Source: an uncultured archaeon | GTDB lineage: Archaea; Aenigmatarchaeota; Aenigmatarchaeia; QMZP01; JACQNV01 | DNA length: 64,000 nt | Reading direction: 5' to 3' | Assembly (NCBI GenBank): GCA_964410585.1 | Contig: CAYPFW010000001.1 | Span: 68,781 to 132,780, forward strand | In this document: positions 37,235 through 52,387 of the stretch, in pieces | Layout of the letters: the number at the start of each line of letters is the position of its first letter | Numbering within the stretch: the first letter of the stretch is position 1 | The notes under the pieces: model-generated | Databases searched by the model: none | Seen by the model: only the letters and a program-made list of their open reading frames with translations | What the model was told of the DNA's origin: nothing | Position numbers and translations under genes: made by a program

Positions 37235-37244
37235 GGTTAATCGT

Positions 37245-37323
37245 GGAAGCCGTAATTTTTTCGAGCTTGCAGGCGAAGAAAAAATAGGCTCCGTTTTTGA
37301 TTAACCTTTTGGACTAAAAGGTT
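37245..37323 (+). promoter_or_regulatory. conserved leader element, copy A (upstream of spt4)
   Basis: GGAAGCCGTAATTTTTTCGAGC...GCGAAGAAAAAATAGGCTCCGTTTTTGATTAACCTTTTGGACTAAAAGGTT then ATG; carries compensatory changes relative to copies B-E. Confidence 0.6.
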
Positions 37324-37509
37324 ATGAAAAGCGAAAAGGTTTGTAAAATTTGCAAAAGGTTTGTACAGGGCGATGAGTGCCCAATTTGCAGAGACAAAGC
37401 TTTCTCAAGATCATGGAAAGGCGTCGTCATAGTCAATGATATAAACTCAGAAATTGGCCAAACAGTTGGAGCCAAATCACCTGGGAAATATTGCATCTGG
37501 GTAAGATGA
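37324..37509 (+). CDS. spt4: transcription elongation factor Spt4 / RNAP subunit E''
   Basis: 61 aa zinc ribbon CKICK...CPICR, C-terminal GKYCIWVR. Confidence 0.7.
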   Translation: MKSEKVCKICKRFVQGDECPICRDKAFSRSWKGVVIVNDINSEIGQTVGAKSPGKYCIWVR

Positions 37510-37510
37510 G

Positions 37511-37550
37511 CCCCTTTTCTTAGAAAGAAAAGGCCCTCGGGTTCAAAAGA
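37511..37550 (+). terminator. conserved 3' hairpin element, copy 1 (after spt4)
   Basis: CCTTTTCTT-aga-AAGAAAAGG stem then CCCTCGGGTTCAAAAGAAC. Confidence 0.4.
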
Positions 37551-37591
37551 ACTACTTTACAAACATATAAACTATCAAAACATGATATTGT

Positions 37592-37673
37592 GGAAGGCGT
37601 TTAAAATTTTTTCGAACAGCAGTGAGAAAAAATTTAGCCTCCTGTTTTGGTTAAGCTTTTAGGATAAAAGGTT
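37592..37673 (+). promoter_or_regulatory. conserved leader element, copy B (upstream of rps24e)
   Basis: GGAAGGCGTTTAAAATTTTTTCGAAC...AGAAAAAATTTAGCCTCCTGTTTTGGTTAAGCTTTTAGGATAAAAGGTT then ATG. Confidence 0.6.
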
Positions 37674-37994
37674 ATGAATATAGAAATTGTACACACAAAG
37701 GAAAACCCTTTGCTAGAAAGGCAGGAAGTTGAAGTTTTAGTTAAACATGACTCTGCTTCTACTCCTAAGAGAGCAGATCTTCTAGTCGAATTAGCAAGCA
37801 AACTAAAAACAGAACAAGAACTTCTGATTTTGGAAACAATAAAAACCAACAAAGGTCAGGCTCAAACAATAGGCAGAGTTTTGGTATACCAGAAAAAAGA
37901 ATCTGTTCCAAAAGACAAGCTCGAAAAAATGCAAAACAGGATTTCTGGCAAAAAGAAAGAAGCAGCTGCACCTGCACCAAAGAAAAAAGAATAA
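37674..37994 (+). CDS. rps24e: ribosomal protein S24e
   Basis: MNIEIVHTKENPLLERQEVEVLVKH... S24e N-terminus. Confidence 0.8.
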   Translation: MNIEIVHTKENPLLERQEVEVLVKHDSASTPKRADLLVELASKLKTEQELLILETIKTNKGQAQTIGRVLVYQKKESVPKDKLEKMQNRISGKKKEAAAPAPKKKE

Positions 37995-37995
37995 A

Positions 37996-38124
37996 ATGAC
38001 TAATTCTATAGAATGTATCCAATGCGGAAAGAAAATGATTCACTACCAATGCAAAGATGTCTGCCCATATTGTGGAGCAAAACTAGATTGTTCTGATTTT
38101 GATCAGCCAGGACAAACTAAATAG
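37996..38124 (+). CDS. small zinc-ribbon protein, possibly ribosomal protein S27ae
   Basis: Unlisted 42-aa ORF MTNSIECIQCGKKMIHYQCKDVCPYCGAKLDCSDFDQPGQTK directly after rps24e (conserved archaeal synteny). Confidence 0.45.
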   Translation: MTNSIECIQCGKKMIHYQCKDVCPYCGAKLDCSDFDQPGQTK

Positions 38125-38301
38125 ATTTTCCTAAACAATTAGAGCAAACTTTCCCAGAAAAATGTTTCTGACAAACTAAAGACCCACAGAGAGAGCAGGA
38201 TAAATTTGCCCTCTTTCCACAGACCGAACACAGTCCTGATATCATACATTATTTTTTGTTCTTTTTCTTCCTATATCTTTTGATGTTTCTGTCGCTTGTT
38301 C

Positions 38302-38496
38302 TCATAAAACAGTTCCACCTCTCTTATCGTATTGTTTACCTAAACAGTTTTTGCAAAGTCTCAATGTATGGTGAAAGCAGCTCACGCAAACATTTGCATC
38401 GCACACATTGCACGAATTAAACTTCTCAGTTACCCTATTGCAAGCTGCGCAAAGTTTTGCTTTTTGTGAGCCAAATAACTCTTTGCCTTGGGCCAT
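38302..38496 (-). CDS. small Cys-rich zinc-finger-like protein
   Basis: 64 aa with 8 Cys in C-x2-C spacing. Confidence 0.4.
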   Translation of the reverse strand: MAQGKELFGSQKAKLCAACNRVTEKFNSCNVCDANVCVSCFHHTLRLCKNCLGKQYDKRGGTVL

Positions 38497-38600
38497 ATTA
38501 TTATTAATGTTTTGATATTAATAACTTAGATAAGCTGAGATGGCGGAGTACTTAATTGAGTTTCAGTTTTGTACGTATTGGTAACGCGCACGCCTGGAAA

Positions 38601-38650
38601 GCTAGCCTTTTCTTTTCAAAAAGAAAGGTCTACCGTATCCAAAAGAAAAC
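38601..38650 (+). terminator. conserved 3' hairpin element, copy 2 (inside tRNA locus)
   Basis: GCTAGCC-TTTTCTTTTC-AAAAAGAAAGG-TCTACCGTATCCAAAAGAAAAC. Confidence 0.4.
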
Positions 38651-38663
38651 GATTTACAAACAT

Positions 38664-38745
38664 GGAAGGCGTAAAAATTTTCGAGTTGAGACGAAGAAAA
38701 TTTTAGCCTCCTTTTTGGATTAACCCTTTTCTCAAAAAGGGTTAT
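38664..38745 (+). promoter_or_regulatory. conserved leader element, copy C (upstream of the tRNA 3' segment)
   Basis: GGAAGGCGTAAAAATTTTCGAG...GAAGAAAATTTTAGCCTCCTTTTTGGATTAACCCTTTTCTCAAAAAGGGTTAT. Confidence 0.55.
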
Positions 38746-38800
38746 AGAAAGCGTGTGCCCTTGTGGCTCCAGAGTTCGAATCTCTGTCTCAGCGTGCTAC

Positions 38801-38840
38801 TCTTTCTTTAGAAAAGAAAGAGCACCGTCCAGAAAGAAAC
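38801..38840 (+). terminator. conserved 3' hairpin element, copy 3 (after tRNA 3' end)
   Basis: CTCTTTCTTT-aga-AAAGAAAGAG then CACCGTCCAGAAAGAAAC. Confidence 0.4.
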
Positions 38841-38949
38841 TACAATACAAACACACATCAAACAAAATTGTAATATACCAAAGAGAAACAATATACAATA
38901 AACCAAAGAAGGCTAGAGTACCCAAAAAACTAATTTACAAAAACAATCT

Positions 38950-41010
38950 CTATGATTTTCTGCCTTCCCTTTCCTGCTTTTTTATTGACTCTCCGATCCT
39001 CTTTCTATCTCCTTCATATCCAAGATTTCTTAAAGATGAATGCAAGCCCAAGTCGTAAAGAATTCTAGCTATCTGATATCCTGTTAATCTGTCTTCTGGC
39101 ATCCTAGACAAAACATATTTGCTATCCCCATTGACTAATCTTAGTTTGCTAATCTGGTCCCTTGTGTAAGTATCAGATGCAGAAAATGGAACATATCCAT
39201 TTGTGCTTGGTCTTGTTGCCAGATATCTTCCCAATTCTATTTTTGCTTTCTCAGGATCTGTTGGCAGACCAAGTCCAGATAAAATAGCATCCCTGATTTT
39301 GGGGTTTTGACTTCCAAGCGCAAACTGTGCAAGATCTGTTTTTCTAGCTCTGCCATTATTGATAAGAGGTTTTATTCCGGCCATAGCAGGCAGTGACCTG
39401 TAAAGCCTGTTCATACCATTATGATCTAAGGTTCCACCCAAATCAACAATCTTCGGTTCTGCCGCTTGTTTTACAGCTTCTTCGTGTGCATAGTGAAGTC
39501 CTAAAACATAATCTGAATCATATCCAAAATGGCCCAAAACTTTCTCAGCTCTGTTTAAGTCCATCTTTTCAATAACTCTTTGTTCAAGTAGATCCTTTGG
39601 TACACCGTTTTCGCCTAATGTAATGCCAATTGCAGCTAATTCTTTTCTAAGTGCTCCATCATCTTCCACACCAAAAGCTTGTCTGAGTCTGTCATTTCCA
39701 TATCTGCTTGAATCAACTACTTGAGCCTGCGGAACAGCAACTTTGACAGCCGGAGGAGCAGGCGTTTGTACTACAGGTTTTCCGTCCTTGACTTCTGCTG
39801 GTTTTTGTTCTACAGCCAAAACTTTTGGATCAACTCCTTTTTTCCTAGCAAATTCAATTAGCCATGTATCTGCTTTATCTTGAATATACAACCCTCTGCC
39901 AGTTCTAGGTGTTTTAGAGCCCCTAAATATGGAGTATGCATCATGATATGATAAGTCTGGATCAATTCTTTTCATTCCTTCGTATATATCTGAGAACCTT
40001 ACTGTCTTAGAATCTGAGTCAGAAACCGATTTTGCCGGAGTCTTTGGTTTTGCATATTTATCAATCTCTGCTAAAAATTTCCTTCTCTTTGCATCTGATA
40101 TACCTCTCATTGATGTAACATAATTTTTTGCATGTTCTACAGTCAGATTGCCTGCTTTTACTCCTCTTTTACTTAGAACTTGATATATGCATCCATATTC
40201 TCTTCCTGTTATTTCAGACAAAGCTGTAATTGTTATTCTTTGTGGTTCAATTTTTGGTTCTTCCACTATGGCGCTAGCTACAGCGCTTTTTGGTGATCTA
40301 GGTGTGTATTGATTAAGTCTACCCAATATAGCCTCTCTTTGAGTGGGAGAAACTCTCCTCATGTCATTTAAAACATAATCTCTTGCATCACCTACTGTTA
40401 TTTCCGACGACTCTATTCCTTTGTTTTCAAAAACACCTAAAATCGTATTAATGTTCCTTCCTGTAATTTCAGCTAAATCTCTTGCAGTTATTCTCTGTTT
40501 AGGATCAGTTTTAGGATGCTCTTTTGTTGCCACATGTGCTGTGTCTGCTGGTTTTCTTGGTTCTACAGCTCCAACACTTTCTTCATACAAAAAGTCAACC
40601 AATCCTTCAGAAGAAGAGATTCCTCTGACTCTTTCTGGAGACAAACTAAAAACAACTCTCAAATCTTTTCCCTTAATGACTTTTTCTATTTCCTTCTGTC
40701 CAGAAAAACTTGCAGGCTCATCTGAATATCTTCCATCAACAACTTTGGCTAACAGTGGTTTTTTCGAGTTGAAATCCAAAATCAGATGAGTTGGTCTGTA
40801 TTCAATTCCAACAACTTCACCTTTTTCATTTCCAAATCTCACAGGATATTCAGATACAGAAATTCTAAGAGGTTCTCCACCAACAACAGATGCCCCACTT
40901 GAAAAATTATTTCCAACAGGTTCTCCTGTAATTATGCTATTGCTCAAGCTATCCATGAATGTCGGCGGTGTGCCTTCGGGCTTCGCTTTTACTTCTACTT
41001 TTAGTACCAT
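38950..41010 (-). CDS. hypothetical 686-aa protein with internal ~65-aa repeats
   Basis: Paired segments QRITARDLAEITGRNINTILGVFENKG... and QRITITALSEITGREYGCIYQVLSKRG...; Ala/Arg/Gly-richer than neighbours. Confidence 0.6.
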   Translation of the reverse strand: MVLKVEVKAKPEGTPPTFMDSLSNSIITGEPVGNNFSSGASVVGGEPLRISVSEYPVRFGNEKGEVVGIEYRPTHLILDFNSKKPLLAKVVDGRYSDEPASFSGQKEIEKVIKGKDLRVVFSLSPERVRGISSSEGLVDFLYEESVGAVEPRKPADTAHVATKEHPKTDPKQRITARDLAEITGRNINTILGVFENKGIESSEITVGDARDYVLNDMRRVSPTQREAILGRLNQYTPRSPKSAVASAIVEEPKIEPQRITITALSEITGREYGCIYQVLSKRGVKAGNLTVEHAKNYVTSMRGISDAKRRKFLAEIDKYAKPKTPAKSVSDSDSKTVRFSDIYEGMKRIDPDLSYHDAYSIFRGSKTPRTGRGLYIQDKADTWLIEFARKKGVDPKVLAVEQKPAEVKDGKPVVQTPAPPAVKVAVPQAQVVDSSRYGNDRLRQAFGVEDDGALRKELAAIGITLGENGVPKDLLEQRVIEKMDLNRAEKVLGHFGYDSDYVLGLHYAHEEAVKQAAEPKIVDLGGTLDHNGMNRLYRSLPAMAGIKPLINNGRARKTDLAQFALGSQNPKIRDAILSGLGLPTDPEKAKIELGRYLATRPSTNGYVPFSASDTYTRDQISKLRLVNGDSKYVLSRMPEDRLTGYQIARILYDLGLHSSLRNLGYEGDRKRIGESIKKQEREGRKS

Positions 41011-41041
41011 ACAATAGGAAATCTATACAAATAGTACAGCC

Positions 41042-41725
41042 ATGGTTTATAAATCTTTCTCCTCCCACTATTGTATGGAAATTAGGATAAAATCCTGCAA
41101 ACCAGAAGAAGCAGAAGGTTTGACAGTCCTTATAGATGTGATACATTCCAGTTCAACAATTGTCCAATTGCTTGATTCGGGGATAGAAAAGCTTATACCC
41201 CTCGCAGAAAACCAAGATATACAACCCTTCAAAGAACAAGGCTACTTGGTTTTTGGTGAAAGGTTTTCCACAGCTTTCAAAAAATCAGAATACCTAAACT
41301 CGCCTCTTGTCGCAGAAACTTTGGATTTGAAAGGCAAAAAAGCTGTGATAAAAACAGATAATGGGACAAAAGCAGTTTTGGCAGCAAAGAATGCGTCTGA
41401 AATTTTGATAGGTTGTTTTCTAAATGCAAGAGCGCTTTTGGAATATGTAAAATCCAAAAATCCAAAATCAGTTGACCTGATTCCAGTTGGCAGACACAGA
41501 AAACAGGCAATAGAGGACGAGCTTTTTGCAGAATATTTCAAAAACTTTTTGGAAGGAAAAGAAATGGATTTCGATGGTTGCAAAAATAAAATATTCAAAA
41601 ATTGGAGAAACATAATTCGACTAATTTTCTTAGGGCAACACACAAATTCTTGTTTCAAGCTAAACACATGCACCACGGTTCCTTTGTTCAAAGGTGGCGA
41701 ATTGGTTCCAATAAAAACAAGATGA
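41042..41725 (+). CDS. 2-phosphosulfolactate phosphatase (ComB)-family-like protein
   Basis: LTVLIDVIHSSSTIV resembles the ComB VIDVLRATTT motif. Confidence 0.45.
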   Translation: MVYKSFSSHYCMEIRIKSCKPEEAEGLTVLIDVIHSSSTIVQLLDSGIEKLIPLAENQDIQPFKEQGYLVFGERFSTAFKKSEYLNSPLVAETLDLKGKKAVIKTDNGTKAVLAAKNASEILIGCFLNARALLEYVKSKNPKSVDLIPVGRHRKQAIEDELFAEYFKNFLEGKEMDFDGCKNKIFKNWRNIIRLIFLGQHTNSCFKLNTCTTVPLFKGGELVPIKTR

Positions 41726-41834
41726 GCCGGCTCAAAAGGTTTATATACTCTAATGCACACTTATTTAGATAATTATGGTTACCCAACCGAGAACTGGGAT
41801 TAGTTTTTATTCTAGTTCTCTGTTGTTTATCTTT

Positions 41835-42623
41835 ATGTCAAAGGCTCAAGTTTTAGATCTTAGCGGAAAGCCAAAGGGAGAAACAAACCTAGGCACAGCT
41901 TTCAAAACCGCTGTAAGGAAAGACATAATTCAAAGAGTTTTTGTTTCTGAGCAAGCTGCCAAAAGACAACCATATGGCACAGATCCGCTTGCTGGAGATC
42001 GTTCATCTGCACACTACCATGGAAGCAGACATGTCAAATGGACAATGATGAACAGGGAAATGGCAAGGATGAAAAGAATCCACAACCAAGGTTATTTGAA
42101 TTATACAGCAAGGGTTGTCCCTTATGCAGCAAAAGGAAGGACAGCTCATCCACCAAAAATCGAGAGAGTTTGGACGCAAAAGGTGAATAAGAAAGAAAGA
42201 GTTTTGGCTTTGAAATCAGCGCTTTCAGCTTCTGTTTTGAAAGATTTGGTACTTCTTAGAGGACACAAAGTTGAAAACATCCATGTACCTTTGATTCTTG
42301 AAAATAAATTTGAGGAATTAAAATCAACAAAAACAGTTGTTGAGGCTTTGATTGCTATTGGTTTAGGACACGAGCTTGACAGAACATCTGAAGTTAAAAT
42401 AAGGGCAGGGAGAGGAAAAATGAGAGGAAGGAGATACAAAGTAAAAAAAGGCCCGCTTTTAGTTGTCACAAAGCCTGCCTTGAAACAAGCTGCAAAAAAC
42501 ATTTTAGGCGTTGATGTTGCAACAACAAAAGAACTCACAATGACTTTGCTTGCTCCAGGTGGACAAGCTGGAAGATTAACAATATTTTCAGAAGCTGCGA
42601 TAGAAGAGTTGAACAAGTTGTGA
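41835..42623 (+). CDS. rpl4: ribosomal protein L4 (uL4)
   Basis: Start set to MSKAQVLDLSGK (ORF-track frame +60); archaeal L4 length; followed by L23-L2. Confidence 0.85.
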   Translation: MSKAQVLDLSGKPKGETNLGTAFKTAVRKDIIQRVFVSEQAAKRQPYGTDPLAGDRSSAHYHGSRHVKWTMMNREMARMKRIHNQGYLNYTARVVPYAAKGRTAHPPKIERVWTQKVNKKERVLALKSALSASVLKDLVLLRGHKVENIHVPLILENKFEELKSTKTVVEALIAIGLGHELDRTSEVKIRAGRGKMRGRRYKVKKGPLLVVTKPALKQAAKNILGVDVATTKELTMTLLAPGGQAGRLTIFSEAAIEELNKL

Positions 42624-42636
42624 TTGGAGGATAAAT

Positions 42637-43008
42637 ATGGTTGAAAAAAAACCTAAAAAAGAAACAAAAAAACCAAAGGCTGAAAAACCAGCAAAAAAAG
42701 AAAAGCCTAAATTAGAAAAGAAAACCAATAAACAGAAGGCCCAGAATTTTGATCCTTTCAAAGTTTTATTGTATCCTCATCTTGCAGAAAAATCAGCAGC
42801 TCTTGTTGACACACAAAACAAAATTGTGTTTGTCGTAAATCCAAATTCAACAAAAGAAGATGTCAAGAAAGCAGTTGAATCAGCATTCGGCGTAAAAGTC
42901 GTCGATGTAAACATAGAAAACACAACATACGGCGAGAAAAAAGCATACATCAGACTTCATTCATCAACACCAGCAACAGAAGTTGCAACAAAATTAGGTA
43001 CATTGTAG
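42637..43008 (+). CDS. rpl23: ribosomal protein L23 (uL23)
   Basis: Lys-rich N-terminus then conserved L23 core; synteny. Confidence 0.85.
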   Translation: MVEKKPKKETKKPKAEKPAKKEKPKLEKKTNKQKAQNFDPFKVLLYPHLAEKSAALVDTQNKIVFVVNPNSTKEDVKKAVESAFGVKVVDVNIENTTYGEKKAYIRLHSSTPATEVATKLGTL

Positions 43009-43026
43009 AAACCATGAGTTTAGGTT

Positions 43027-43695
43027 ATGGGTAAGAATTTGATCCAACAAAGAAGGGGAAGAGGTTCATTCACATACTTAGTCCCAAGAAGCGGGAAAAG
43101 ATACAACCCTCTATATAGCGGTAAGAAAGGAGTTGTTAAAGATATTTTACATGATAGAGGAAGAGATGCTCCAATAATTGAAATCCAAAACGAGGATGGA
43201 ACTGTAAATTATATGATAGCTCCAAAGGGAATAAAAGTAGGCGATATTGCTGAAAATTTAGGCGTTCCGCTTTCATCTGTCCAAGAAGGATCACAGATTT
43301 TCGGTTTGGAAACCTATCCAAATTCAGGCCCAAAGCTTTGCATGTCTCCAGGATCATTTGCAACAGTTGTCTCAAAAACAGCAAACGCATGTTTAGTGAA
43401 AATGCCTTCAAGAAAAGAAAAAACATTTAGTTTATCTTGTAGGGCTAGTTTAGGTGTCCCTGCAGGCGATGGTAGAAAAGACCAGCCATTTACAAAAGCA
43501 GGTGTCAAACATTATTTCATGAGAGCAAGAGGAAAACTATATCCTCGTACATCTCCAGTGAAGATGAATGCTATAGACCATCCTTTTGGTGGTGCAACAT
43601 CTGTTGGTACACCAATGACAATCAGCAGGCATGCTCCTCCTGGTGCAAAAGTTGGATCTGTTGCAGCTAGAAGGACGGGTAGGAAGAATAAGTAA
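43027..43695 (+). CDS. rpl2: ribosomal protein L2 (uL2)
   Basis: LIQQRRGRGS N-terminus and HPFGGATSVGTPMT C-terminal motif. Confidence 0.9.
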   Translation: MGKNLIQQRRGRGSFTYLVPRSGKRYNPLYSGKKGVVKDILHDRGRDAPIIEIQNEDGTVNYMIAPKGIKVGDIAENLGVPLSSVQEGSQIFGLETYPNSGPKLCMSPGSFATVVSKTANACLVKMPSRKEKTFSLSCRASLGVPAGDGRKDQPFTKAGVKHYFMRARGKLYPRTSPVKMNAIDHPFGGATSVGTPMTISRHAPPGAKVGSVAARRTGRKNK

Positions 43696-43721
43696 ATAAA
43701 GGAGAAAGTTAAGATATCGCT

Positions 43722-44102
43722 ATGAATGAAATAAAATTTCGTGGACTGGAATTTGAGCAAGTAAAAAAGCTTTCATTAGAAGAATTTAGCAACCTTCTTC
43801 CATCAAGGGACAGAAGAGCTCTTAGAAGAGGTTTCACAGACGCTGAGAAAAAACTTCTAAAAAGCGTCAGAAAAAACCCTAAAAAATTCCACAAAACACA
43901 AGCAAGGGAAATGATAATCATACCAGAATTTGTAGGACAAAGAATAGGAATCCACAACGGCAAAGAATTTGTTGCTGTGGATATAAGACCAGAAATGATT
44001 GGACACAGGCTCGGCGAGTTTGCCCTAACAAGAAAATCAGTCAAGCACTCAGCTCCTGGTTTCGGTGCTACAAAATCATCAAAGTTCGTGCCATTGAAAT
44101 AG
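43722..44102 (+). CDS. rps19: ribosomal protein S19 (uS19)
   Basis: MIGHRLGEFALTRK motif; synteny. Confidence 0.85.
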   Translation: MNEIKFRGLEFEQVKKLSLEEFSNLLPSRDRRALRRGFTDAEKKLLKSVRKNPKKFHKTQAREMIIIPEFVGQRIGIHNGKEFVAVDIRPEMIGHRLGEFALTRKSVKHSAPGFGATKSSKFVPLK

Positions 44103-44149
44103 CTAGCCTTTCTTTTCAGAAAAGAAAGTCTACCGTACCCAAAGAAAAC
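44101..44149 (+). terminator. conserved 3' hairpin element, copy 4 (after rps19)
   Basis: AGCTAGCC-TTTCTTTT-caga-AAAGAAAG-TCTACCGTACCCAAAGAAAAC; overlaps the rps19 stop codon. Confidence 0.45.
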
Positions 44150-44168
44150 GGTATACAGGTTGATAAAT

Positions 44169-44552: not shown

Positions 44553-44553
44553 A

Positions 44554-45363: not shown

Positions 45364-45365
45364 AT

Positions 45366-45623
45366 ATGGCAATTTTAAGATTGGATGAAATGAGAAAAAT
45401 GGAAGAAAAAGACCTAAATTCAAAAATAACAGAGTTGAGAATTGAGCTTGCTAAGGAAAAAGCCAATATAAGAATAGGCGCTTCTGTGTCTTCTCCTGGA
45501 AGACTAAAACAGATAAAGAAGACAATAGCAAGAGTTGAGACACTCAAAAAGGAAAAGCTATTAAAGGCTAAGAATCAAGAAATAAGTAAGTCAGCTCCAA
45601 AGGCTGATAAAGAGGGGAAATAA
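45366..45623 (+). CDS. rpl29: ribosomal protein L29 (uL29)
   Basis: MAILRLDEMRKMEEKDLNSKITELRIELAKEKA helical L29 pattern; synteny. Confidence 0.75.
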   Translation: MAILRLDEMRKMEEKDLNSKITELRIELAKEKANIRIGASVSSPGRLKQIKKTIARVETLKKEKLLKAKNQEISKSAPKADKEGK

Positions 45624-45627
45624 GTAA

Positions 45628-45930
45628 ATGGCAGTTTGTCCTAATTGTGGCTTACCAAAAGAAATTTGTGCATGTGAAAGCATAGCACGCGAAGAGGAAA
45701 AGATAAAAGTTTTTTCTGAAAAAAGAAGATACTCACGTCCTATCACAATAATCCATGGTTTGAGCAAGAGTGCTGATAGCAAAGGTATTTTGAAAGAGTT
45801 AAAAACCCGCTTGGCTTGTGGTGGAACAATAAAAAACAATGAAATCGAGCTGCAAGGCGAGCATGTTGAAAAAGTCAAACAACTTTTGCTCAAACTCGGT
45901 TTCCAAAAGGAACAGATAGAAGACTTTTAG
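45628..45930 (+). CDS. sui1: translation initiation factor aSUI1 (eIF1 homologue)
   Basis: N-terminal CPNCG...CAC zinc ribbon and SUI1 core RPITIIHGL ... LACGGTIKNNEIELQG. Confidence 0.8.
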   Translation: MAVCPNCGLPKEICACESIAREEEKIKVFSEKRRYSRPITIIHGLSKSADSKGILKELKTRLACGGTIKNNEIELQGEHVEKVKQLLLKLGFQKEQIEDF

Positions 45931-45966
45931 CACTTTTCTTTTTCTGCTCAGTTTTGAAAAAAGAAA

Positions 45967-46088
45967 TCGTGTCTCTTTGGTTATATTGTGACACGAGATT
46001 GAGTGAGCTTGTCTCACTCAAGATGTGCTCACTGCTCATGTGCTGTTGCACATGACATCTCAGCATCTATTTCACAGTGAGATGCTGA
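45967..46088. other. cluster of four consecutive stem-loops between convergent sui1 and the ArsR-like gene
   Basis: TCGTGTC/GACACGA; TTGAGTGAG/CTCACTCAA; CATGTGC/GCACATG; TCAGCATCT/AGATGCTGA, GC-richer than surroundings. Confidence 0.5.
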
Positions 46089-46145
46089 CCTGCACTAAAG
46101 AAAACAAGCGATTGACTTCAAAAAAATATACAACTAGATACTCTA

Positions 46146-46757
46146 TTAATTTATTTCCATCCTATACTTCTTCGGCAAACCAAATGACGCCACCATCATG
46201 ACTGCACCGATCACAAGAAAAACTATTGTATACAAGCTGAATTCAGGTTCTTGTTCAGTTTCAACTGTTTGTATAATAGAAGTATCTTCTCTTTCTTTAT
46301 TTTCAGTCTCATTAAAGGAACTAGCTGCTTTGAGAGCTCCTGTGACTTTTTCTTGACTGATAACTGAAGGACTTGTTAAAGCAGCATCTGCCAAACTATT
46401 TATTTCATATTGACTAGAAAACTGAGATGAATAAGGCTGAAAAAATGTTGCAAAGGCTCCCAAAAATATCAATCCACCTAAAACCAAAATAACAACAAAT
46501 TGCGGTGTGTATTGCGGTTTCACTAAAGTATTTCCTTTTTCAGTTAGTTCATAGTAAATCCATTTATGTCCAGTTTCCTTTCTTTGAATTAGTCTAGAGT
46601 CTTCTAAATTTTTCAAGTGTTCAGAAATTGTGGAGGCTGCCATTCCAAATTCTTTGGCTAACTCAGTCGGCATTTTCCTTCTCCTGGCTAAACTTTTCAG
46701 TATATCTATTCTTGTCTCTGATGAGAGCGATTTTATCGTAGTCCTATCAAGCTCCAT
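46146..46757 (-). CDS. ArsR-family winged-helix regulator fused to transmembrane segments
   Basis: HTH region MPTELAKEFGMAASTISEHLKNLEDSRLIQRK followed by two predicted TM helices. Confidence 0.65.
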   Translation of the reverse strand: MELDRTTIKSLSSETRIDILKSLARRRKMPTELAKEFGMAASTISEHLKNLEDSRLIQRKETGHKWIYYELTEKGNTLVKPQYTPQFVVILVLGGLIFLGAFATFFQPYSSQFSSQYEINSLADAALTSPSVISQEKVTGALKAASSFNETENKEREDTSIIQTVETEQEPEFSLYTIVFLVIGAVMMVASFGLPKKYRMEIN

Positions 46758-46798
46758 ATTTAGTGTTTATTTTGTCTTGTTTAAATATGACCTGATAT

Positions 46799-46818
46799 TA
46801 TTCGGTTTCTGCCGAATA
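46799..46818. promoter_or_regulatory. perfect palindrome upstream of the ArsR-like gene (candidate operator)
   Basis: TATTCGG-tttctg-CCGAATA about 40-60 nt upstream of the start codon at 46757. Confidence 0.4.
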
Positions 46819-46929
46819 GTTTGCATAGTCATTTGTTCTTACAAAAAAAGATAAAATATGAATAGATATGTGATAATAATTTCGTTTCTAACAGGTTTTT
46901 CGATAGTGGTTTCTACAATTTTTTTATAG

Positions 46930-47250
46930 TTAAGGGAAAATAATGTGTCTTGATTTGTCAACCCTTGTCCAATCACCCTCACTTGTTTCATATGCCACTA
47001 ATCTTCTATTGAAAAAAGTTAGCTTTTTCGGATCGTGTTCTAATGGAATAGGTCCACCATACTCTATCCTATGTGGACCAAACTTTTCCTCAACCCAAGC
47101 ACCTATGCCGTTTATTGTAAATCTCCATAGGGTGTATTCATAATTTCCAAAAAATCTTCTACACCTTTTTTGTTCAGTTGGTTCTCTGATATGAAAACCA
47201 AGTGCTCTCATCTGCTGTACGAATCCGGGTATCATATATAGGTCTGTCAT
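46930..47250 (-). CDS. hypothetical protein (106 aa)
   Basis: ORF track only. Confidence 0.4.
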   Translation of the reverse strand: MTDLYMIPGFVQQMRALGFHIREPTEQKRCRRFFGNYEYTLWRFTINGIGAWVEEKFGPHRIEYGGPIPLEHDPKKLTFFNRRLVAYETSEGDWTRVDKSRHIIFP

Positions 47251-47279
47251 TCAAAAAGTATATAAGATAGTTTTAAATT

Positions 47280-47558
47280 ATGATCACTCCTGAAAATTTA
47301 GTCAGACACGAACTAATAGGCCTGAAAGTCCTAGTTGAAAAATCAACAAACAAGTTGCAGCAAGGCCTGTCTGGAACAATAGTTGACGAAACAAGGCAAA
47401 CGCTTACCCTCAGAGATTCTGCCGGAGAAAAACAGGTTTTGAAGGATCAGTGTGTTTTTGTTTTTTCTCTTCCTTCTGAAAAAAAAGTCCGGGTTGATGG
47501 AAAAGTACTTGTTTCTAGACCAGAAGATAGGATAAAGAAAAAACTGAGAGTGTGGTAG
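47280..47558 (+). CDS. rnp1: RNase P protein component 1 (Rpp29/Pop4 family)
   Basis: LIGLKVLVEKSTNKLQQGLSGTIVDETRQTLTL matches the p29 barrel motif. Confidence 0.7.
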   Translation: MITPENLVRHELIGLKVLVEKSTNKLQQGLSGTIVDETRQTLTLRDSAGEKQVLKDQCVFVFSLPSEKKVRVDGKVLVSRPEDRIKKKLRVW

Positions 47559-47559
47559 T

Positions 47560-47784
47560 ATGGAAGTGAAAAAGGGAAAATACTTGCATTACAAGGGAAA
47601 AGAATACAAAGTCCTTGGAGTAGCAAAACACAGCGAGACAATGGAAGATCTAGTTGTCTATCAAGCGCTTTATGATTCAAAAGAGTTTGGCAAAAATGCG
47701 CTTTGGGTAAGGCCAAAGAAAATGTTTCTGGAAAATGTTGTTGTGGATGGAAAAGAAGTGCCTAGGTTCAAGATGATCACGTGA
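47560..47784 (+). CDS. DUF1653-like small protein
   Basis: GKYLHYKGKEYKVLGVAKHSETMEDLVVYQALY pattern. Confidence 0.5.
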   Translation: MEVKKGKYLHYKGKEYKVLGVAKHSETMEDLVVYQALYDSKEFGKNALWVRPKKMFLENVVVDGKEVPRFKMIT

Positions 47785-48104
47785 AGAGATTTAAATCTAA
47801 TCATGCTATTCTGCTTATGGGTTACATAGATCAAATTTTTAGACGTCCAGAGGACGATGTATTTGTCGTAGCAGAACCAAGACATGGAATAGCTGGTCTA
47901 CAATATATTGGATCAGTGCCCTATAGACTCGATTTCCCGAATAGAGCTGTAGATAGTGCTCACTATGTTTCTAGAGCTGAATTAAGAAGAGCTCTTGCAG
48001 ATAAACAAATAGAGCTTGAAAGAAGTTTAGCTATAACAGGTGATATACTTGAAAGCCTTGATCCGAGGAAGATGAAAAAGCAAACTGATAGAGCAGAATC
48101 CTAA
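47781..48104 (+). CDS. hypothetical protein (107 aa)
   Basis: ORF track; start overlaps upstream stop. Confidence 0.4.
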   Translation: MKRFKSNHAILLMGYIDQIFRRPEDDVFVVAEPRHGIAGLQYIGSVPYRLDFPNRAVDSAHYVSRAELRRALADKQIELERSLAITGDILESLDPRKMKKQTDRAES

Positions 48105-48150
48105 TTATATTTGAATTATTTATATACTCGGGAGTACCAATTTAGGTATT

Positions 48151-48363
48151 ATGGCAGAACATTCAAAAGGTTGTAGGGCTGCTTTGGCTGTATTTGGCCT
48201 GCTATTTTTGTTAGTGGGTTTGTATGCAGTCATGGGTGACCTTGGATCAGCAACAAAAATGGTTGACAAATGGTCTTTGGTCATCGTCCTTGGAGGCTTA
48301 ATGCTTCTCCTTAAAGGAGCATTTGGCGGAAAATGTGCAGCATGTGGTGGTCAATCAAAATAA
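48151..48363 (+). CDS. small membrane protein (70 aa)
   Basis: Two hydrophobic helices; C-terminal CAACGG. Confidence 0.4.
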   Translation: MAEHSKGCRAALAVFGLLFLLVGLYAVMGDLGSATKMVDKWSLVIVLGGLMLLLKGAFGGKCAACGGQSK

Positions 48364-48391
48364 TTTTGGGCCACTTAATTTTTTCTATTTC

Positions 48392-48844
48392 TTATTTTTC
48401 TTTGTTTAGAATATTCAGAAGATCGACTAAATATCTTATTGTGTATGTTGGTTCCTCCTCCTTTGTTTGAGGAAGAATTTTAGAGTATTTCCCAAATTTG
48501 AACCAAACAGTTTTCATGCCAGCCTTATTTCCAGCTTTTATTTCAGCCTGAATTTTGTCACCAACAACCAACACCTCTTCTGGTTTCAATCCCATTTCAG
48601 CTGCACATTCCAAAAAATGTTTTTTATCCTTGTGCTCGCCTTCAACAACGATTATTTTTGTGAATTTTTTATCCAACCCCTTTTCTTCCAAACTTTCCAA
48701 TCTATGCCCCTCGCCTGTTGTGATTAGGCAAAGTTTGTATTTCTTAGAAAGTTCCTCTAAAAGTCCTGGAACTTCGTCTATTAAGTCCCATTTTTCTGGG
48801 TCAAACAGAGTCCTATTATAATCAAAAATTATTCCTTTAATCAT
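48392..48844 (-). CDS. HAD-superfamily hydrolase
   Basis: N-terminal IIFDYNRTL (DxD-type motif I) and downstream HAD motifs. Confidence 0.7.
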   Translation of the reverse strand: MIKGIIFDYNRTLFDPEKWDLIDEVPGLLEELSKKYKLCLITTGEGHRLESLEEKGLDKKFTKIIVVEGEHKDKKHFLECAAEMGLKPEEVLVVGDKIQAEIKAGNKAGMKTVWFKFGKYSKILPQTKEEEPTYTIRYLVDLLNILNKEK

Positions 48845-48892
48845 GTTCTATGATTGAAACTGCACATTTAAAAACAAAATCCAATTAGAACC

Positions 48893-49183
48893 ATGCCAAC
48901 AAAAGAAGAAGTGATAGAGGTCCTGAAGAAAATAGAAGATCCTGAAATTCATATTGATATCTGGACACTGGAATTGGTGAGGGATATTGTAATTGAAAAT
49001 GAAAGGGTAAAAATTAAAATGACCCTGACAACACCTGCTTGTCCATATGGGCCTGCTTTAATACAAGAAGTTGAAAGCACACTCAAAACCCTTCCAGGTA
49101 TAAATTCAGTTGAAATAGAACTTGTTTTCTCTCCCCCTTGGCAGCCTTCAGATGAAGTAAAGGAAATGTTGGGGCTCACTTAA
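48893..49183 (+). CDS. DUF59/MIP18-family Fe-S cluster assembly protein
   Basis: EEVIEVLKKIEDPEIHIDIWTLELV and TTPACPYG motifs. Confidence 0.65.
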   Translation: MPTKEEVIEVLKKIEDPEIHIDIWTLELVRDIVIENERVKIKMTLTTPACPYGPALIQEVESTLKTLPGINSVEIELVFSPPWQPSDEVKEMLGLT

Positions 49184-49196
49184 GCCTTTATAAACA

Positions 49197-49244
49197 CCAG
49201 CTAGCCTTCTTTTAGAAAAAGAAGGCTACCGTACCCAAGAAAAC
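49197..49244 (+). terminator. conserved 3' hairpin element, copy 5 (after DUF59 gene)
   Basis: AGCTAGCCTTCTTTT-aga-AAAAGAAGGCTA-CCGTACCCAAGAAAAC; followed by TTTATAAATA TATA-like box before rps17. Confidence 0.45.
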
Positions 49245-49290
49245 TATAATTCACATTTATAAATACCTCATTTCTATATACTAAGATAAT

Positions 49291-49611
49291 ATGAAAACAA
49301 ACATAGGCGTTGAAGCCAACCCACCAAAAGAAAAGTGCGAAGATAAGAAATGCCCATGGCATGGCCAGCTTTCTGTTAGAGGCAGGGTCTTCGATGTAGT
49401 GATAAAAAGCACAAAACCAAACAAAACAGCAATTGTCGGCTGGGATTACAATCTATATTTGCAAAAATACGAAAGGTTTGAAAGAAGAAAAAGCAGGTTA
49501 TCTGCATACAATCCTTCTTGTTTGAGGGCAAAGGAAGGCGACAAAGTAAGGATAGCAGAGTGCAAGCCTCTTTCAAAAACAAAAAGCTTCGTAGTTGTTG
49601 GAAAGCTTTGA
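49291..49611 (+). CDS. rps17: ribosomal protein S17 (uS17), archaeal type
   Basis: CEDKKCPWHGQLSVRGRVF N-terminal extension and ECKPLSKTKSFVV core. Confidence 0.85.
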   Translation: MKTNIGVEANPPKEKCEDKKCPWHGQLSVRGRVFDVVIKSTKPNKTAIVGWDYNLYLQKYERFERRKSRLSAYNPSCLRAKEGDKVRIAECKPLSKTKSFVVVGKL

Positions 49612-49716
49612 TAGGAAACTTTTTGCCTTCCTATCAACAAGTTCGTCTGATGTGGAGATGACGAACATTTATAAGATCGGTGATCAATATACCTATTCAA
49701 AAGGTTTAAGCGTCGC

Positions 49717-49798
49717 GGAAGGCGTAAAATTTTTCCGAGCAACAGCGAAGAAAAATTTAGCCTCCTGTTTTGCTTAAGCTTTTGGGACAAAAGCTTAT
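49717..49798 (+). promoter_or_regulatory. conserved leader element, copy D (upstream of rpl14)
   Basis: GGAAGGCGTAAAATTTTTCCGAGC...GCGAAGAAAAATTTAGCCTCCTGTTTTGCTTAAGCTTTTGGGACAAAAGCTTAT then ATG. Confidence 0.6.
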
Positions 49799-50197
49799 AT
49801 GAAGGGACTTTCAGCTAACATCACAAAAGGACTTGGAACAAAATCCATACTCACATGTATAGACAATACAGGTGCAAAAGAATTGGAAATAATATCTGTC
49901 CGAGGATTCAAGGGTAAAAGAAGGACAAAACCAAGAGCAGGCGTCGGTGACCAAGTCACATGCAGAGTGAAAAGGGGAGTTGAAAAAGTCAGGCACGAAA
50001 TGTTCAAAGTTGTGATTGTTAGGCAAACAAAAGAATACAGAAGGTTTGATGGAACAAGAATAAGCTTTGAAGACAATGCAGGTGTAATAATCAATGAAAT
50101 GGGTGAGCCAACAGGAACCCTTTTGAAAGGCCCAATTGCAAAAGAAGCTGTGGAAAGATTCCCAACAGTTGGAAAGTTGGCATCAATAATAATTTGA
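49799..50197 (+). CDS. rpl14: ribosomal protein L14 (uL14)
   Basis: CIDNTGAKELEIISV ... AGVGDQVTCRVK ... GPIAKE motifs. Confidence 0.9.
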   Translation: MKGLSANITKGLGTKSILTCIDNTGAKELEIISVRGFKGKRRTKPRAGVGDQVTCRVKRGVEKVRHEMFKVVIVRQTKEYRRFDGTRISFEDNAGVIINEMGEPTGTLLKGPIAKEAVERFPTVGKLASIII

Positions 50198-50198
50198 T

Positions 50199-50411
50199 AT
50201 GGTCAACGTAACAAGAATAGGTGGATACACAGTAAGAGAAGATAGTGAAGAGATTCATGTTGTGATGCCTTCGGGAAGAGTTGCAGAGATTGATGGTGAT
50301 GATTATCACGCTTTCCGTAACCAAGTATATGCGGCCATGCGATCAGGTGCAACTGTTGCAGTTGATGTGCTTAGTAATTTTTTGAAGGATAGAGGAATTA
50401 GAAATTTATGA
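50199..50411 (+). CDS. small hypothetical protein inserted between rpl14 and rpl24
   Basis: 70-aa ORF, compositionally unlike flanking ribosomal proteins. Confidence 0.4.
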   Translation: MVNVTRIGGYTVREDSEEIHVVMPSGRVAEIDGDDYHAFRNQVYAAMRSGATVAVDVLSNFLKDRGIRNL

Positions 50412-50809
50412 AAACACAGTGGTCAACAAGCTGGATAAGCAGCAAGCAGCCAAGGAAGCAAAGAAAATATAGATACAATGCTCCTCTTCATGTCAGAAGA
50501 AAATTTGTTTCAGCACACTTATCAAAAGTTCTTAGAAAAAGATTCAACAGAAGGGCAGTCCCTTTGAGAAAAGGTGATGAAGTCGAGGTCATGAGAGGAA
50601 ATTTCAGTGGCCAAAAAGGCAAGGTTGAAAGAGTAGATCTTAAACACTCCAAAGTTTATGTTGAAAACATAAAAGTAAAAAAAGTCAACGGCACAGAAGT
50701 TTTAAAACCTTTAGAGCCTTCAAATCTCCTAATAACAAACCTGGTCCTCGAAGACAAAATGAGGAAAAAAGTCTTGGAAAAGAAAATGATCAAAGAGGAG
50801 GCTAAATAA
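50408..50809 (+). CDS. rpl24: ribosomal protein L24 (uL24)
   Basis: KOW motif LRKGDEVEVMRGNFSGQKGKV. Confidence 0.8.
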   Translation: MKTQWSTSWISSKQPRKQRKYRYNAPLHVRRKFVSAHLSKVLRKRFNRRAVPLRKGDEVEVMRGNFSGQKGKVERVDLKHSKVYVENIKVKKVNGTEVLKPLEPSNLLITNLVLEDKMRKKVLEKKMIKEEAK

Positions 50810-51525
50810 TGTACCTAAAAAGATATTCAGCTCCAGAGCAATGGAAGATTGGAAAAAAAGCATACACATGGGTAGTTAAACCATCTCCTGGACCTCATCC
50901 GCTGAAAAAATCTATTCCCCTTCAAATTCTTGTTAGGGACGTTTTCAAATTCGCAGACACGGCAGCAGAAGCAAAAAAAATAATCCATTCTGGAAAAATT
51001 TTAGTTGACAAAAAAGAAAGGAAAGATCCAAAATATCCTGTCGGTTTAATGGATTTGATAGATATACCATCTATCCAAAAATCATATAGAGTTTTCCCAT
51101 CCAAAAAAGGACTTGAGGTTCTCGAAGCTAGCCAAAGTGAAAACGCAAAACTTTGCAGAATAAACGACAAAAGAACATTGAAGAAAAATGTTTTCCAATT
51201 AAATCTTCATGACGGAAGAAATCTTATCACAAGTGAAAACACATACAAGCCAGGCGATTCTATTCTGATTAGTTTACCAGGACAGGAAATTGTAAAACAT
51301 TATTCACTAAAACAGGGCGAACATGCTTATGTTATTTCAGGAAAAAATATTGGATTCAAAGGCTCAATAAAAGAAATAAAACAAAGAAAGTATATGAGAG
51401 AAAGTAGTAAAGTTGTTTTGGAAAAAGACAAAGACAGGATAGAAACTCTGAAAGATTACATTTTGGTTGGTGAGTTAACAGGCGAACAAAAAGTTGAAAA
51501 GAAAAAGAAAAAAGAAAGTGAATAG
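50809..51525 (+). CDS. rps4e: ribosomal protein S4e
   Basis: MYLKRYSAPEQWKIGKKAYTWVVKPSPGPH N-terminus. Confidence 0.85.
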   Translation: MYLKRYSAPEQWKIGKKAYTWVVKPSPGPHPLKKSIPLQILVRDVFKFADTAAEAKKIIHSGKILVDKKERKDPKYPVGLMDLIDIPSIQKSYRVFPSKKGLEVLEASQSENAKLCRINDKRTLKKNVFQLNLHDGRNLITSENTYKPGDSILISLPGQEIVKHYSLKQGEHAYVISGKNIGFKGSIKEIKQRKYMRESSKVVLEKDKDRIETLKDYILVGELTGEQKVEKKKKKESE

Positions 51526-51527
51526 AT

Positions 51528-52043
51528 ATGTTGAGCATGCGAGATGTTAAATTGGAAAAGGTTACGATTAATGTAGGCACAGGAGAACCTGGACCTAAAT
51601 TAGAAAAAGCAAGAAAAATAGTTGAAAAAATAAGTCAAAGAAAGGCAGTTATTACAAAGGCTAAAAAGAGAACAACTTTCGGAACAGTCAAAGGAAAGCA
51701 AATAGGTGTTAAAGTCACATTGAGAGGAAAGCCTGCAGCAGAATTTTTAAAAAGTGCTTTCAAGTCTGTTGGAAACAAGCTAAAGGCTTCACAGTTTGAT
51801 GCTTCAGGAAACTTTTCATTTGGAATAGAGGAATACATAAACATCCCCGGTATAAAATATGATCCGGAAGTTGGTATGATGGGAATGGATGTATGTGTTA
51901 CACTCCAAAGACCTGGATATAGGGTTAAGAAAAGGATGATAAGGCCGGCAAAAATAGGTAAAAATCATTTGCTAAAAAAAGAAGATTCAATTGAATTTGT
52001 AAAAAAACAATTTGGAATACAAATATCTGAGGATCAAAAATAA
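51528..52043 (+). CDS. rpl5: ribosomal protein L5 (uL5)
   Basis: LEKVTINVGTGEPG and conserved L5 core; synteny. Confidence 0.85.
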   Translation: MLSMRDVKLEKVTINVGTGEPGPKLEKARKIVEKISQRKAVITKAKKRTTFGTVKGKQIGVKVTLRGKPAAEFLKSAFKSVGNKLKASQFDASGNFSFGIEEYINIPGIKYDPEVGMMGMDVCVTLQRPGYRVKKRMIRPAKIGKNHLLKKEDSIEFVKKQFGIQISEDQK

Positions 52044-52083
52044 AATCATGGAGGGTCTAGAAATATAAAAAAAGTTTAAGCGT

Positions 52084-52161
52084 GGAAGGCGTAATTTTTT
52101 GCAAGCAACAGCGAAGCAAAAAATAGCCTCCGTTTTTGCTTAAGCTTTTGACTAAAAGCTT
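52084..52161 (+). promoter_or_regulatory. conserved leader element, copy E (upstream of rps14)
   Basis: GGAAGGCGTAATTTTTTGCAAGC...GCGAAGCAAAAAATAGCCTCCGTTTTTGCTTAAGCTTTTGACTAAAAGCTT then ATG. Confidence 0.6.
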
Positions 52162-52383: not shown

Positions 52384-52387
52384 TCCT

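Follow-up and report, generated by a model that had tools for sequence, protein, structure and literature searches.

Transposition of tRNA introns occurs in the Thermoproteales, and Nanoarchaeum equitans has split tRNA genes. Disruption of a tRNA gene by a mobile element has been described in Caldiarchaeum (PMC3293823), and DPANN lineages carry heavily disrupted tRNA genes (PMC5829648). The DNA considered here, a 64,000-nucleotide stretch (the window) of contig CAYPFW010000001.1 from an uncultured archaeon of the Aenigmatarchaeota, carries five copies of an element that are members of a large, undescribed ~80-nt two-hairpin family of DPANN archaea. The element occupies two niches, the start codons of protein genes and, reversed, the introns of tRNA and rRNA genes, and is apparently mobile. 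Tentatively favoured here is a reading in which a mobile or duplicative module, when oriented with a gene behind it (the P class of copies, as opposed to the I class within stable-RNA genes), is transcribed as a structured 5' leader that replaces a leaderless or Shine-Dalgarno (SD) start.

The five copies, proposed in an initial annotation made from the sequence alone, are recovered by pattern and by model. The pattern GGAAGSCGT-N30-50-TAGSCTCC matches the window at these five sites only, all on the forward strand, and never in 100 shuffles, and the covariance-model search that the initial annotation had suggested, with a model made from the five copies themselves, scores each copy at 88.9 to 98.5 bits, the next match in the 64 kb standing at 21 bits (filters off). 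RNAalifold resolves the copies into a first hairpin, H1, of 48-51 nt, a U-rich linker of 8 nt and a second hairpin, H2, of 23-25 nt, with compensatory changes in 9 of 27 pairs; folded singly, the copies have energies between -18.8 and -25.8 kcal/mol and z-scores between -1.5 and -3.3. Copy A (37245-37324; H1 37245-37292, linker 37293-37300, H2 37301-37324) precedes spt4 and begins 10 nt past the stop codon of rpoE, copy B (37592-37674; H2 37651-37674) ends in the ATG of rps24e, copy D (49717-49797; H2 49774-49797) precedes the rpl14 ATG at 49799, and copy E (52084-52162; H2 52140-52162) lies between rpl5 and rps14. These four belong to the P class, to which copy C (38664-38744; H2 38720-38744) is assigned by its sequence; it lies within the interruption of a tRNA-Ser(GGA) gene. 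Pfam identifies the genes behind the copies as Spt4 (A), S24e (B), L14 (D) and S14 (E), and those upstream as RpoE/Rpb7 (A), S17 (D) and L5 (E), while ARAGORN identifies the tRNA, so that the neighbours named in the initial annotation are all borne out.

The junction of element and gene is exact to the nucleotide. H2 closes in copies A, B and E on the very A that opens the ATG, and in copy D a single T intervenes (TTA-T-ATG). The compensatory changes quoted in the initial annotation are correct: in H2, copy A pairs AACC with GGTT, copy C pairs AACCC with GGGTT, and copies D and E pair AAGC with GCTT, and the lower stem of H1 reads GGC/GCC in B to E against GCC/GGC in A. Two features come in addition to those quoted there: H2 of copy B has a G.G mismatch (AAGC/GGTT), and the A/U-rich middle stem of H1 covaries as well, through swaps of AU and UA among the five copies. 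Copy B carries an insertion, CGTTTAAAA, in common with its orthologous copy at the related locus L046.

Beyond the window, one scan of species-representative genomes yielded 12 loci in 5 metagenome-assembled genomes (MAGs) labelled Aenigmatarchaeota, Woesearchaeota or uncultured archaeon, and one metagenome scan yielded 35 further loci (cited below by L numbers). In these loci the covariance model finds 65 copies at E < 1e-4, at least 12 of which lack a match to the search pattern. The claim that the copies are homologous is supported. In the consensus, H1 reads T|GGAAGSCGUAA, continues as a stem rich in A and U that contains tandem G.A and is capped by a small hairpin, and finishes with UAGSCUCC; the linker reads nnUUUUGm (8 nt, U-rich), and H2, which comes last, is UUAAsCUUUU-loop-AAAAGsUUA. 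The loci were collected by a pattern that requires the conserved blocks, so the conservation of these blocks is partly by construction. Insertions and length variation are restricted to the loops of H1 and H2, and the H1 stem is GC-rich instead of A/U-rich in L001, L003, L007, L012 and L042. No earlier description of the element emerged from literature searches. A search of IMG/VR with the pattern gave no match, and a viral origin of the element was rejected on that ground. The element matches no Rfam family: the window holds no match at gathering score, a permissive search (E <= 10) of 37200-38900 returns only noise (at most 21 bits, E >= 0.7), and 17 related loci searched at both gathering and permissive thresholds contain only rRNA, RNase P RNA and one tRNA.

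Complementarity is constrained in both stems: of the cells in 64 distinct sequences, 95.9% are paired, against 78.3% in shuffles and at most 59.6% when the partners are slid, and changes on both sides occur in 24 of the 27 pairs in the 65-copy set; H2 and the lower stem of H1 also covary in this way when the copies are aligned with MAFFT, without fitting to the model. To this extent the reading of the initial annotation is supported. The covariation is real, yet alone it is no proof of an RNA role. Functional RNA normally has many G.U pairs and few A.C pairs, and the ~1600 paired cells of the family comprise 982 A-T, 600 G-C, 21 G.T and 13 A.C. Because G.U and A.C are both rare and pairing is nearly pure Watson-Crick, covariation fails to single out RNA. 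Such pairing fits DNA hairpins, a constraint on both strands or quasi-palindrome repair at the level of DNA. A choice of strand from G.U against A.C was abandoned, the counts (21 versus 13 overall, 6 versus 1 in the intron copies alone) being too small to decide. H1 also conserves a tandem GA/GA(A). CUGA...GAGGA in H1 could be taken for a kink-turn or a C'/D' box, a reading that was rejected, as its register leaves the flanking helix unpaired; the only paired register is a symmetric 2x2 or 3x3 loop without a bulge, which disposes of a kink-turn or L7Ae site.

Copies of the family fall into two classes by niche, and the niche goes with orientation. The P class comprises 32 copies that abut the start codon of an open reading frame (ORF), as TTA+TG or TTA+T+ATG, and are always oriented with the gene. 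About half of the genes concerned encode ribosomal proteins (S24e, S4e, S28e-like, L2, L37ae, L24, L14, S8 and S14), the others HEPN-like, membrane and unknown proteins. The I class comprises ~18 copies inside stable-RNA genes, in the opposite orientation; its hosts are genes for tRNA-Asp, -Gly, -Ala, -Thr and -Leu, with the interruption either at position 37/38 or within the D loop, the 16S rRNA gene of L004 and a hairpin loop of 23S rRNA in L005, where the insert measures 104 nt. In L003 a copy stands immediately 3' of the 5S gene. A tRNA-Asp(GUC) gene at 3825-4038 of L002 has two introns, in the D loop and at 37/38, each built on an antisense copy, and tRNA-Asp is intron-free in L041, in contrast to L002 and L010. 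A bulge-helix-bulge (BHB) finder written for this analysis recovers strict motifs in the I orientation in L010, in L002 (L002:3954) and in the 16S gene of L004, where one H2 arm makes up the outer helix together with a further stretch from the intron's far end; the intron class consists of true BHB introns. Around the ATG of P-orientation copies the same finder, which looks for strict motifs, gives no consistent BHB. BHB-type excision of the gene-head copies was therefore rejected, since the finder works on true introns, and an identity as archaeal BHB introns was rejected for copies A, B, D and E, which lie between protein genes. Copy C does interrupt a stable-RNA gene, tRNA-Ser(GGA), yet it forms no strict BHB motif.

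Three further features separate the classes. H2 measures 23-25 nt in all 30 P copies without loop inserts and 27-28 nt in 9 of 18 intron copies, and its loop is often RGGAY in the P class and GUGAC or CUCUUGAAG in the intron class. An upstream half-palindrome, AAAAGnTTAAkC, that can pair with the H2 5' arm (-12 to -16 kcal/mol, z about -3) occurs in about half of the P copies and in none of the intron copies. On the forward strand of the window, GGTTAATCGT at 37235-37244, ahead of copy A, could form a helix, termed P0, with GATTAACC, where H2 begins. Ahead of copy D, AAAAGGTTTAAGCGTCGC (49699-49716) can form a 12-bp P0 helix with GCTTAAGCTTTT (-15.2 kcal/mol, z -3.1), which is mutually exclusive with H2, and a third half-palindrome, AAAAAAAGTTTAAGCGT, stands at 52067-52083, ahead of copy E.

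This distribution bears directly on the interpretation given in the initial annotation, by which genes of translation and transcription would have an RNA leader of their own that regulates them in cis, or else a protein site of dyad symmetry, in the manner of ribosomal-protein autoregulatory leaders. All four protein genes behind the window copies are of this kind, about half of all P copies precede ribosomal-protein genes, and the structure covaries. Against such a dedicated leader, one and the same element heads many different ribosomal-protein genes as well as genes for HEPN-like, membrane and unknown proteins, its positions differ between close relatives, its intron copies are antisense, and the comparison with the ribosomal-protein leaders of Rfam, run as the initial annotation had advised, gave no match. 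A stem spacing of 28 to more than 52 nt is likewise unsuited to a dimeric DNA site. The proposal has largely failed already and is now extremely unlikely.

The family is a repeat whose copies come and go between close relatives. In the spc operon of the window, the junctions ahead of rpl14 (D) and rps14 (E) carry a copy. The related locus L050, whose L5 is 94% identical to that of the window, lacks D and E and has a copy before rpl24 only, and L051 (L5 78% identical) has copies before rpl14 (diverged), rpl24 and rps8 and none ahead of rps14, so that presence and absence vary at four spc junctions among the three. In L050, rpl14 is preceded by a normal TATA region, and rpl5 and rps14 are separated by 3 nt (TAA-AAT-ATG); in L051 the latter two genes overlap. 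At this junction the window has 115 bases more than L050, and the half-palindrome upstream of copy E lies within the additional segment. Where filled and empty sites can be compared, for copy D against L050 and for the rps8 copy of L051 against L050, the old TATA box has been kept and now lies ~24 nt upstream of H1. Copies elsewhere precede rps4e (L011) and rpl2 (L038). Two Logan contigs end 22 nt into copy E, a break attributable to its being a repeat.

Several observations adjoin this comparison. The 11-mer ATCATGGAGGG occurs at 52045-52055 of the window, 39 nt upstream of copy E, and at 1937-1947 of L044, 27 nt upstream of the copy there, and opens a mini-ORF (MEG...) at both places, from which it follows that the copied unit may reach further upstream than the model does. 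A 70-amino-acid ORF without a Pfam match lies between rpl14 and rpl24 (50199-50411), at the exact place where L050 and L051 have the element. In L046, two tandem copies 45 nt apart lie upstream of rps24e (2197-2442), the first of which, with a degenerate H2 (TTGACA..GGTCA) that no gene follows, appears to be decaying.

Spread of this kind, which the initial annotation had judged insufficient alone, would suffice under one rival reading. A purely selfish repeat, resembling miniature inverted-repeat transposable elements (MITEs) or REP sequences, would have no role at gene heads; its copies would survive where they are least harmful, and its stems would be kept by hairpin-templated quasi-palindrome correction, by gene conversion or by the needs of a hairpin-recognising transposase. 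Gain and loss between close relatives, nearly pure Watson-Crick pairing with G.U about as frequent as A.C, and the presence of both orientations all agree with such an origin, as do sub-families within genomes, identical neighbouring copies in L015 and L046, a pair of inverted copies with one common H2 in L016 and partial duplications in L012 and L036. However, more than 30 independent loci have the element in strict orientation and 0-2 nt from the ATG, which calls for function or for a targeting mechanism, and essential, highly expressed genes rely on the sequence between the promoter or upstream cistron and the ATG. Orthologous copies have also been kept with compensatory differences, as between B and its counterpart in L046 or among the introns in tRNA-Gly at L013, L018 and L019; no transposase was found among the scanned window ORFs, no terminal inverted repeats were found, and the one candidate target-site duplication is at copy C: a 6-nt GAAAGC flanks the insert to which copy C belongs, and none was seen at copy E or at the intron copies. 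Pure selfishness is unlikely. The initial annotation is supported as to the homology of its copies, their complementarity and the position of H2, and is not supported as to gene-class specificity, the discounting of repeat spread or covariation as a mark of RNA.

The favoured reading, a mobile module serving as a leader, starts from how other genes of the window begin. Ordinary genes have TTTATATA-like boxes ~22-31 nt before the ATG, and because these boxes end ~20-24 nt before it, leaderless starts are implied; ordinary operon-internal genes have GGAGG 5-9 nt before the ATG. Element-bearing genes of the window have neither a TTTATATA box nor GGAGG. At the TATA position they have TTTTGMTT, and H2 occupies the place of a ribosome-binding site, as the initial annotation had noted, or that of a promoter. 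A canonical promoter with a transcription factor B recognition element (BRE) and TATA box (TTTAWATA-like, ~26 nt before the start) was accordingly rejected. Under the favoured reading the module would be duplicative or mobile DNA whose stems are held in Watson-Crick register and which persists in both niches. In the P orientation one transcript would cover module and gene, the module forming a structured leader, 5' or intercistronic, that may act in translation or message stability. H1 would form a GC-clamped hairpin at or near the transcript's 5' end, the U-rich linker would stay single-stranded, and H2, with the AUG held at its foot, would present a loop rich in purines (RGGAY in about half of the copies) at a distance of 9-11 nt upstream of that codon; in the half of the copies that have one, the upstream half-palindrome might then pair with the H2 5' arm and free the AUG.

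A leader is favoured over an internal promoter by TTTTGMTT being a poor TATA match and by the old TATA boxes kept upstream of H1 in the filled and empty sites. Three P copies with 60-130 nt inserted in the H2 loop point the same way, since their loop-AAAAGGTTA-TG is still contiguous with the ATG, as do the class-specific P0 helix, purine-rich loop and H2 length; in ~18 of 33 P copies the loop is RGGAY, GGAG or GAGA and lies 9-11 nt upstream of the AUG, a sub-family with CUC loops being without such a loop. Weighing against the leader are, with respect to transcription, that a canonical TATA box stands at the right distance upstream of H1 in just ~1/3 of the P copies, that upstream TATA boxes show no positional enrichment by either consensus counting or a matrix derived by expectation maximisation (no significant peak), and that sense-strand U4-U6 runs could halt archaeal RNA polymerase. 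A positioned upstream TATA box was thus rejected statistically, individual cases being B, D, L038, L040, L045, L032 and L051. Copies E, L035 and L042 lack an SD-like loop. With respect to mobility, no transposase or mobility gene was found among the Pfam-scanned ORFs of the window (~66 of ~75), and insertions would have to land within 0-2 nt of an ATG. Finally, the near absence of G.U pairs is unusual for a functional RNA, and the conserved blocks are as conserved in the intron class, whose RNA is the reverse complement.

Because the intron class conserves the blocks equally, their conservation cannot come from RNA function of the P strand alone; it points to a DNA-level recogniser or, more speculatively, to pairing between intron RNA and leader RNA. 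The latter would amount to a coupling in trans, in which introns excised from abundant tRNA and rRNA precursors act as antisense RNAs against P leaders and tie the output of ribosomal-protein and transcription genes to stable-RNA synthesis. In its favour are the retention of GGAAGSCGTAA, TAGSCTCC and TTTTGMTTAA in both classes across genomes despite their reverse-complement RNAs, the strict split of orientation by gene type and the ribosomal-protein genes behind about half of the P copies; an intron copy (L010) and a copy before S4e (L011) in one MAG have identical runs of 16 and 12 nt. However, the conserved blocks lie mostly within stems, recognition at the DNA level explains common blocks more simply, and many P copies precede unrelated genes, which leaves the proposal very unlikely. 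If true, it would make the element one regulatory system of two orientation classes, whose cassette also creates introns and split genes, with tRNA-Ser caught midway.

The U-rich linker admits a different transcriptional reading, in which the element is a terminator-promoter cassette: H1 and its U-run would end upstream transcription, the T-run with GMTTAA would be a non-canonical TATA/BRE, and a leaderless start would fall at the A of the terminal TTA; at copy C the 3' half of tRNA-Ser would be transcribed separately. The fixed distance of 0 or 2 nt from element end to ATG would follow naturally, the T-run lies at -30 to -27, the T-run place of ordinary TATA boxes in this genome, and the 23-25 nt constraint on H2 is confined to the gene-head class. 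Copies are also operon-internal, just 10-40 nt past the upstream stop codon, copy C stands behind a terminator-like T element (described below) inside a tRNA gene, and almost every intron copy is antisense, which a sense strand able to stop or start transcription would lead one to expect. However, G/C falls within the core of the would-be box, TTTTGMTT, in a genome where textbook TTTATATA boxes are plentiful, the fixed distance from box to start is broken by the three copies with 60-130-nt inserts between linker and ATG, and the linker is equally conserved in intron copies, where a promoter would harm. Simple scanners for sigma-70 promoters and intrinsic terminators flag nothing inside the copies, and the antisense strand has U4-U5 runs too, which tRNA and rRNA transcription must read through. 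A cassette of this kind is somewhat unlikely and ranks next after the leader.

Processing, rather than initiation, could also place an AUG exactly behind H2. In such a scheme of RNA punctuation, an endonuclease would recognise H1-linker-H2 in polycistronic precursors and cut at the foot of H2, so that mRNAs would emerge leaderless and the 3' part of tRNA-Ser would obtain its 5' end. The AUG abuts the H2 foot with no SD or TATA between, the elements together with T hairpins punctuate the S10-spc ribosomal cluster, and the same hairpin adjoins the splice sites in the intron class. The window encodes archease (56169-56588) and the tRNA-splicing ligase RtcB (60444-61928), ~4 kb apart, as well as the RNase P protein p29 (47280-47558), whose presence fits a heavy intron load. 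Support for this scheme is only architectural. In P-orientation copies no consistent BHB or relaxed helix-bulge-helix surrounds the ATG, H2 takes the first base of the AUG into its pairing so that a cut of the RNase Z or Cas6 type would not leave an intact AUG, and no candidate enzyme was found; the scheme is distinctly unlikely.

Copy C sits in an interrupted tRNA gene. On the unedited sequence neither ARAGORN nor Rfam calls a tRNA in the 64 kb, and once two inserts (~150 nt and ~25 nt) are removed ARAGORN calls tRNA-Ser(gga) at 38534-38794. The 5' part runs up to the anticodon loop (38534-38602, forward strand) and has the ~25-nt insert in its D loop at ~38546-38571; the 3' part, recognised in the sequence and by ARAGORN on the spliced form, occupies 38747-38794 (forward strand). 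The large insert, at position 37/38, is composed of the T element followed by copy C. Because the direct repeat GAAAGC flanks it (38597-38602 and 38748-38753), six neighbouring splice choices are equivalent in ARAGORN. Behind the H2 of copy C comes TAGA and then the tRNA 3' part, with a gap of 2-8 nt (TA up to TAGAAAGC). Copy C is co-oriented with the tRNA and is the sole sense-oriented copy inside a tRNA gene, and the BHB finder, which looks for strict motifs, detects no canonical BHB around the insert. On the favoured reading copy C is a P cassette that, together with a T element, was inserted into the anticodon loop, and tRNA-Ser(GGA) could be a split gene with adjacent halves or be cis-spliced through a relaxed motif.

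The T element at 38603-38663 (forward strand), between the tRNA 5' part and copy C, is a terminator-like hairpin with the tail CTACCGTATCCAAAAGAAAAC, followed by GATTTACAAAC. The same module lies behind spt4 and ahead of copy B, at 37513-37591. It represents a second repeat family, with further members at 38800-38860, 44108-44168, 49202-49290 and 52387-52524 of the window and others in the related loci L032, L035, L045 and L046. Its hairpin, CCTTTTCTT..AAGAAAAGG or the H2-like TAACCTTTT..AAAAGGTTA, begins 3-5 nt past stop codons or tRNA ends and is followed by the tail CTACCGTAYCCAAAAGAAAAC and then a TATA-like TTTACAAA or TATACAAA; one member interrupts the S10 operon between rps19 and rpl22. 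Pairing of the T-element tail with the linker of the two-hairpin element was rejected as just generic complementarity of an A-run with a U-run.

A third structured module, of ~135 nt with multiple hairpins (Z), lies at 45960-46100 between a SUI1 gene and an ArsR-type gene. It has homologous pieces in L045, L013, L047 and L034 and no match in Rfam, sits in the H2 loop of three P copies as well (L024, L036 and L045:1747), and may be a small RNA of a new kind or another mobile module. Among the proteins encoded nearby, an 835-amino-acid protein (53665-56172) with N-terminal bacterial sigma-70 regions 1.2, 2, 3 and 4 adjoins a NusA-like KH protein; sigma-70 genes are known in DPANN archaea, Woesearchaeota especially (PMC8204110). 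Right behind rps8 in the spc cluster, an unusual place found alike in L050, lies a gene for an 88-amino-acid protein of the L7Ae/L30e family (52913-53179).

The consequences of the element extend from annotation to gene architecture. It explains the absence of tool-detected tRNAs in the 64 kb and in ~190 kb of related DNA: standard tools miss the tRNAs because the stable-RNA genes are riddled with one intron family. It also offers a concrete, sequence-defined agent for archaeal intron gain and tRNA gene splitting, a long-standing question. In these reduced genomes a conserved two-hairpin module heads dozens of genes that are essential and highly expressed and that have neither a TATA box at -26 nor a Shine-Dalgarno sequence, which may represent a third, portable form of archaeal gene-start architecture. 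In practical terms, true start codons can be recognised by the element, short-read assemblies break at it, and a covariance-model search could annotate DPANN genomes.

Set beside described systems, the element shares something with each of several. I-class copies resemble other archaeal BHB introns in interrupting tRNAs at 37/38 and at non-canonical positions as well as 16S and 23S rRNA, and intron-less and intron-bearing alleles are both present, as in tRNA-Asp (L041 versus L010). In contrast to BHB introns, window copies A, B, D and E lie outside RNA genes and have no BHB, and the intron class is reversed relative to the window copies; to our knowledge, homologous introns common to gene heads have not been reported. 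tRNA-Ser(GGA) recalls the split tRNAs of N. equitans, in that its 5' part meets a terminator-like module and its 3' part is headed by a P module, so that the two parts resemble separate genes. Unlike those of N. equitans, its halves are adjacent and co-oriented, with no complementary trailer and leader and no canonical BHB found. Two likenesses are of architecture only. Like the ompA-type 5' stabiliser stem-loops and structured leaders of bacterial mRNAs, the element would place a GC-clamped hairpin at the predicted 5' end, with the start codon right behind its second hairpin; like the Sm sites of small nuclear RNAs, it has a U-run (conserved UUUUUG) between two hairpins, with a weak Rfam match to SmY (E = 2) and the RAU4-6GR consensus only half met.

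The closest parallel is with the bacterial REP/REPIN repeats mobilised by RAYT transposases and with hairpin MITEs derived from IS200/IS605. Like the element, these are short intergenic hairpin repeats with conserved bases at the stem foot and covarying Watson-Crick stems, occur in either orientation and occasionally as inverted pairs (as in L016), vary in presence between close relatives, and can gain roles at mRNA ends. No transposase domain occurs in the Pfam-scanned ORFs of the window, which covers 64 kb of a contig of about 600 kb, no search having been aimed at an HUH/Y1 transposase (TnpA or RAYT). The element differs from REP/REPIN in being archaeal, in having two different hairpins with a conserved single-stranded linker and no GTAG motif, in its nucleotide-exact position at start codons and in doubling as the body of an intron. 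By analogy, then, it appears to work most like hairpin repeats of the REP/MITE type that have acquired roles at the ends of mRNAs.

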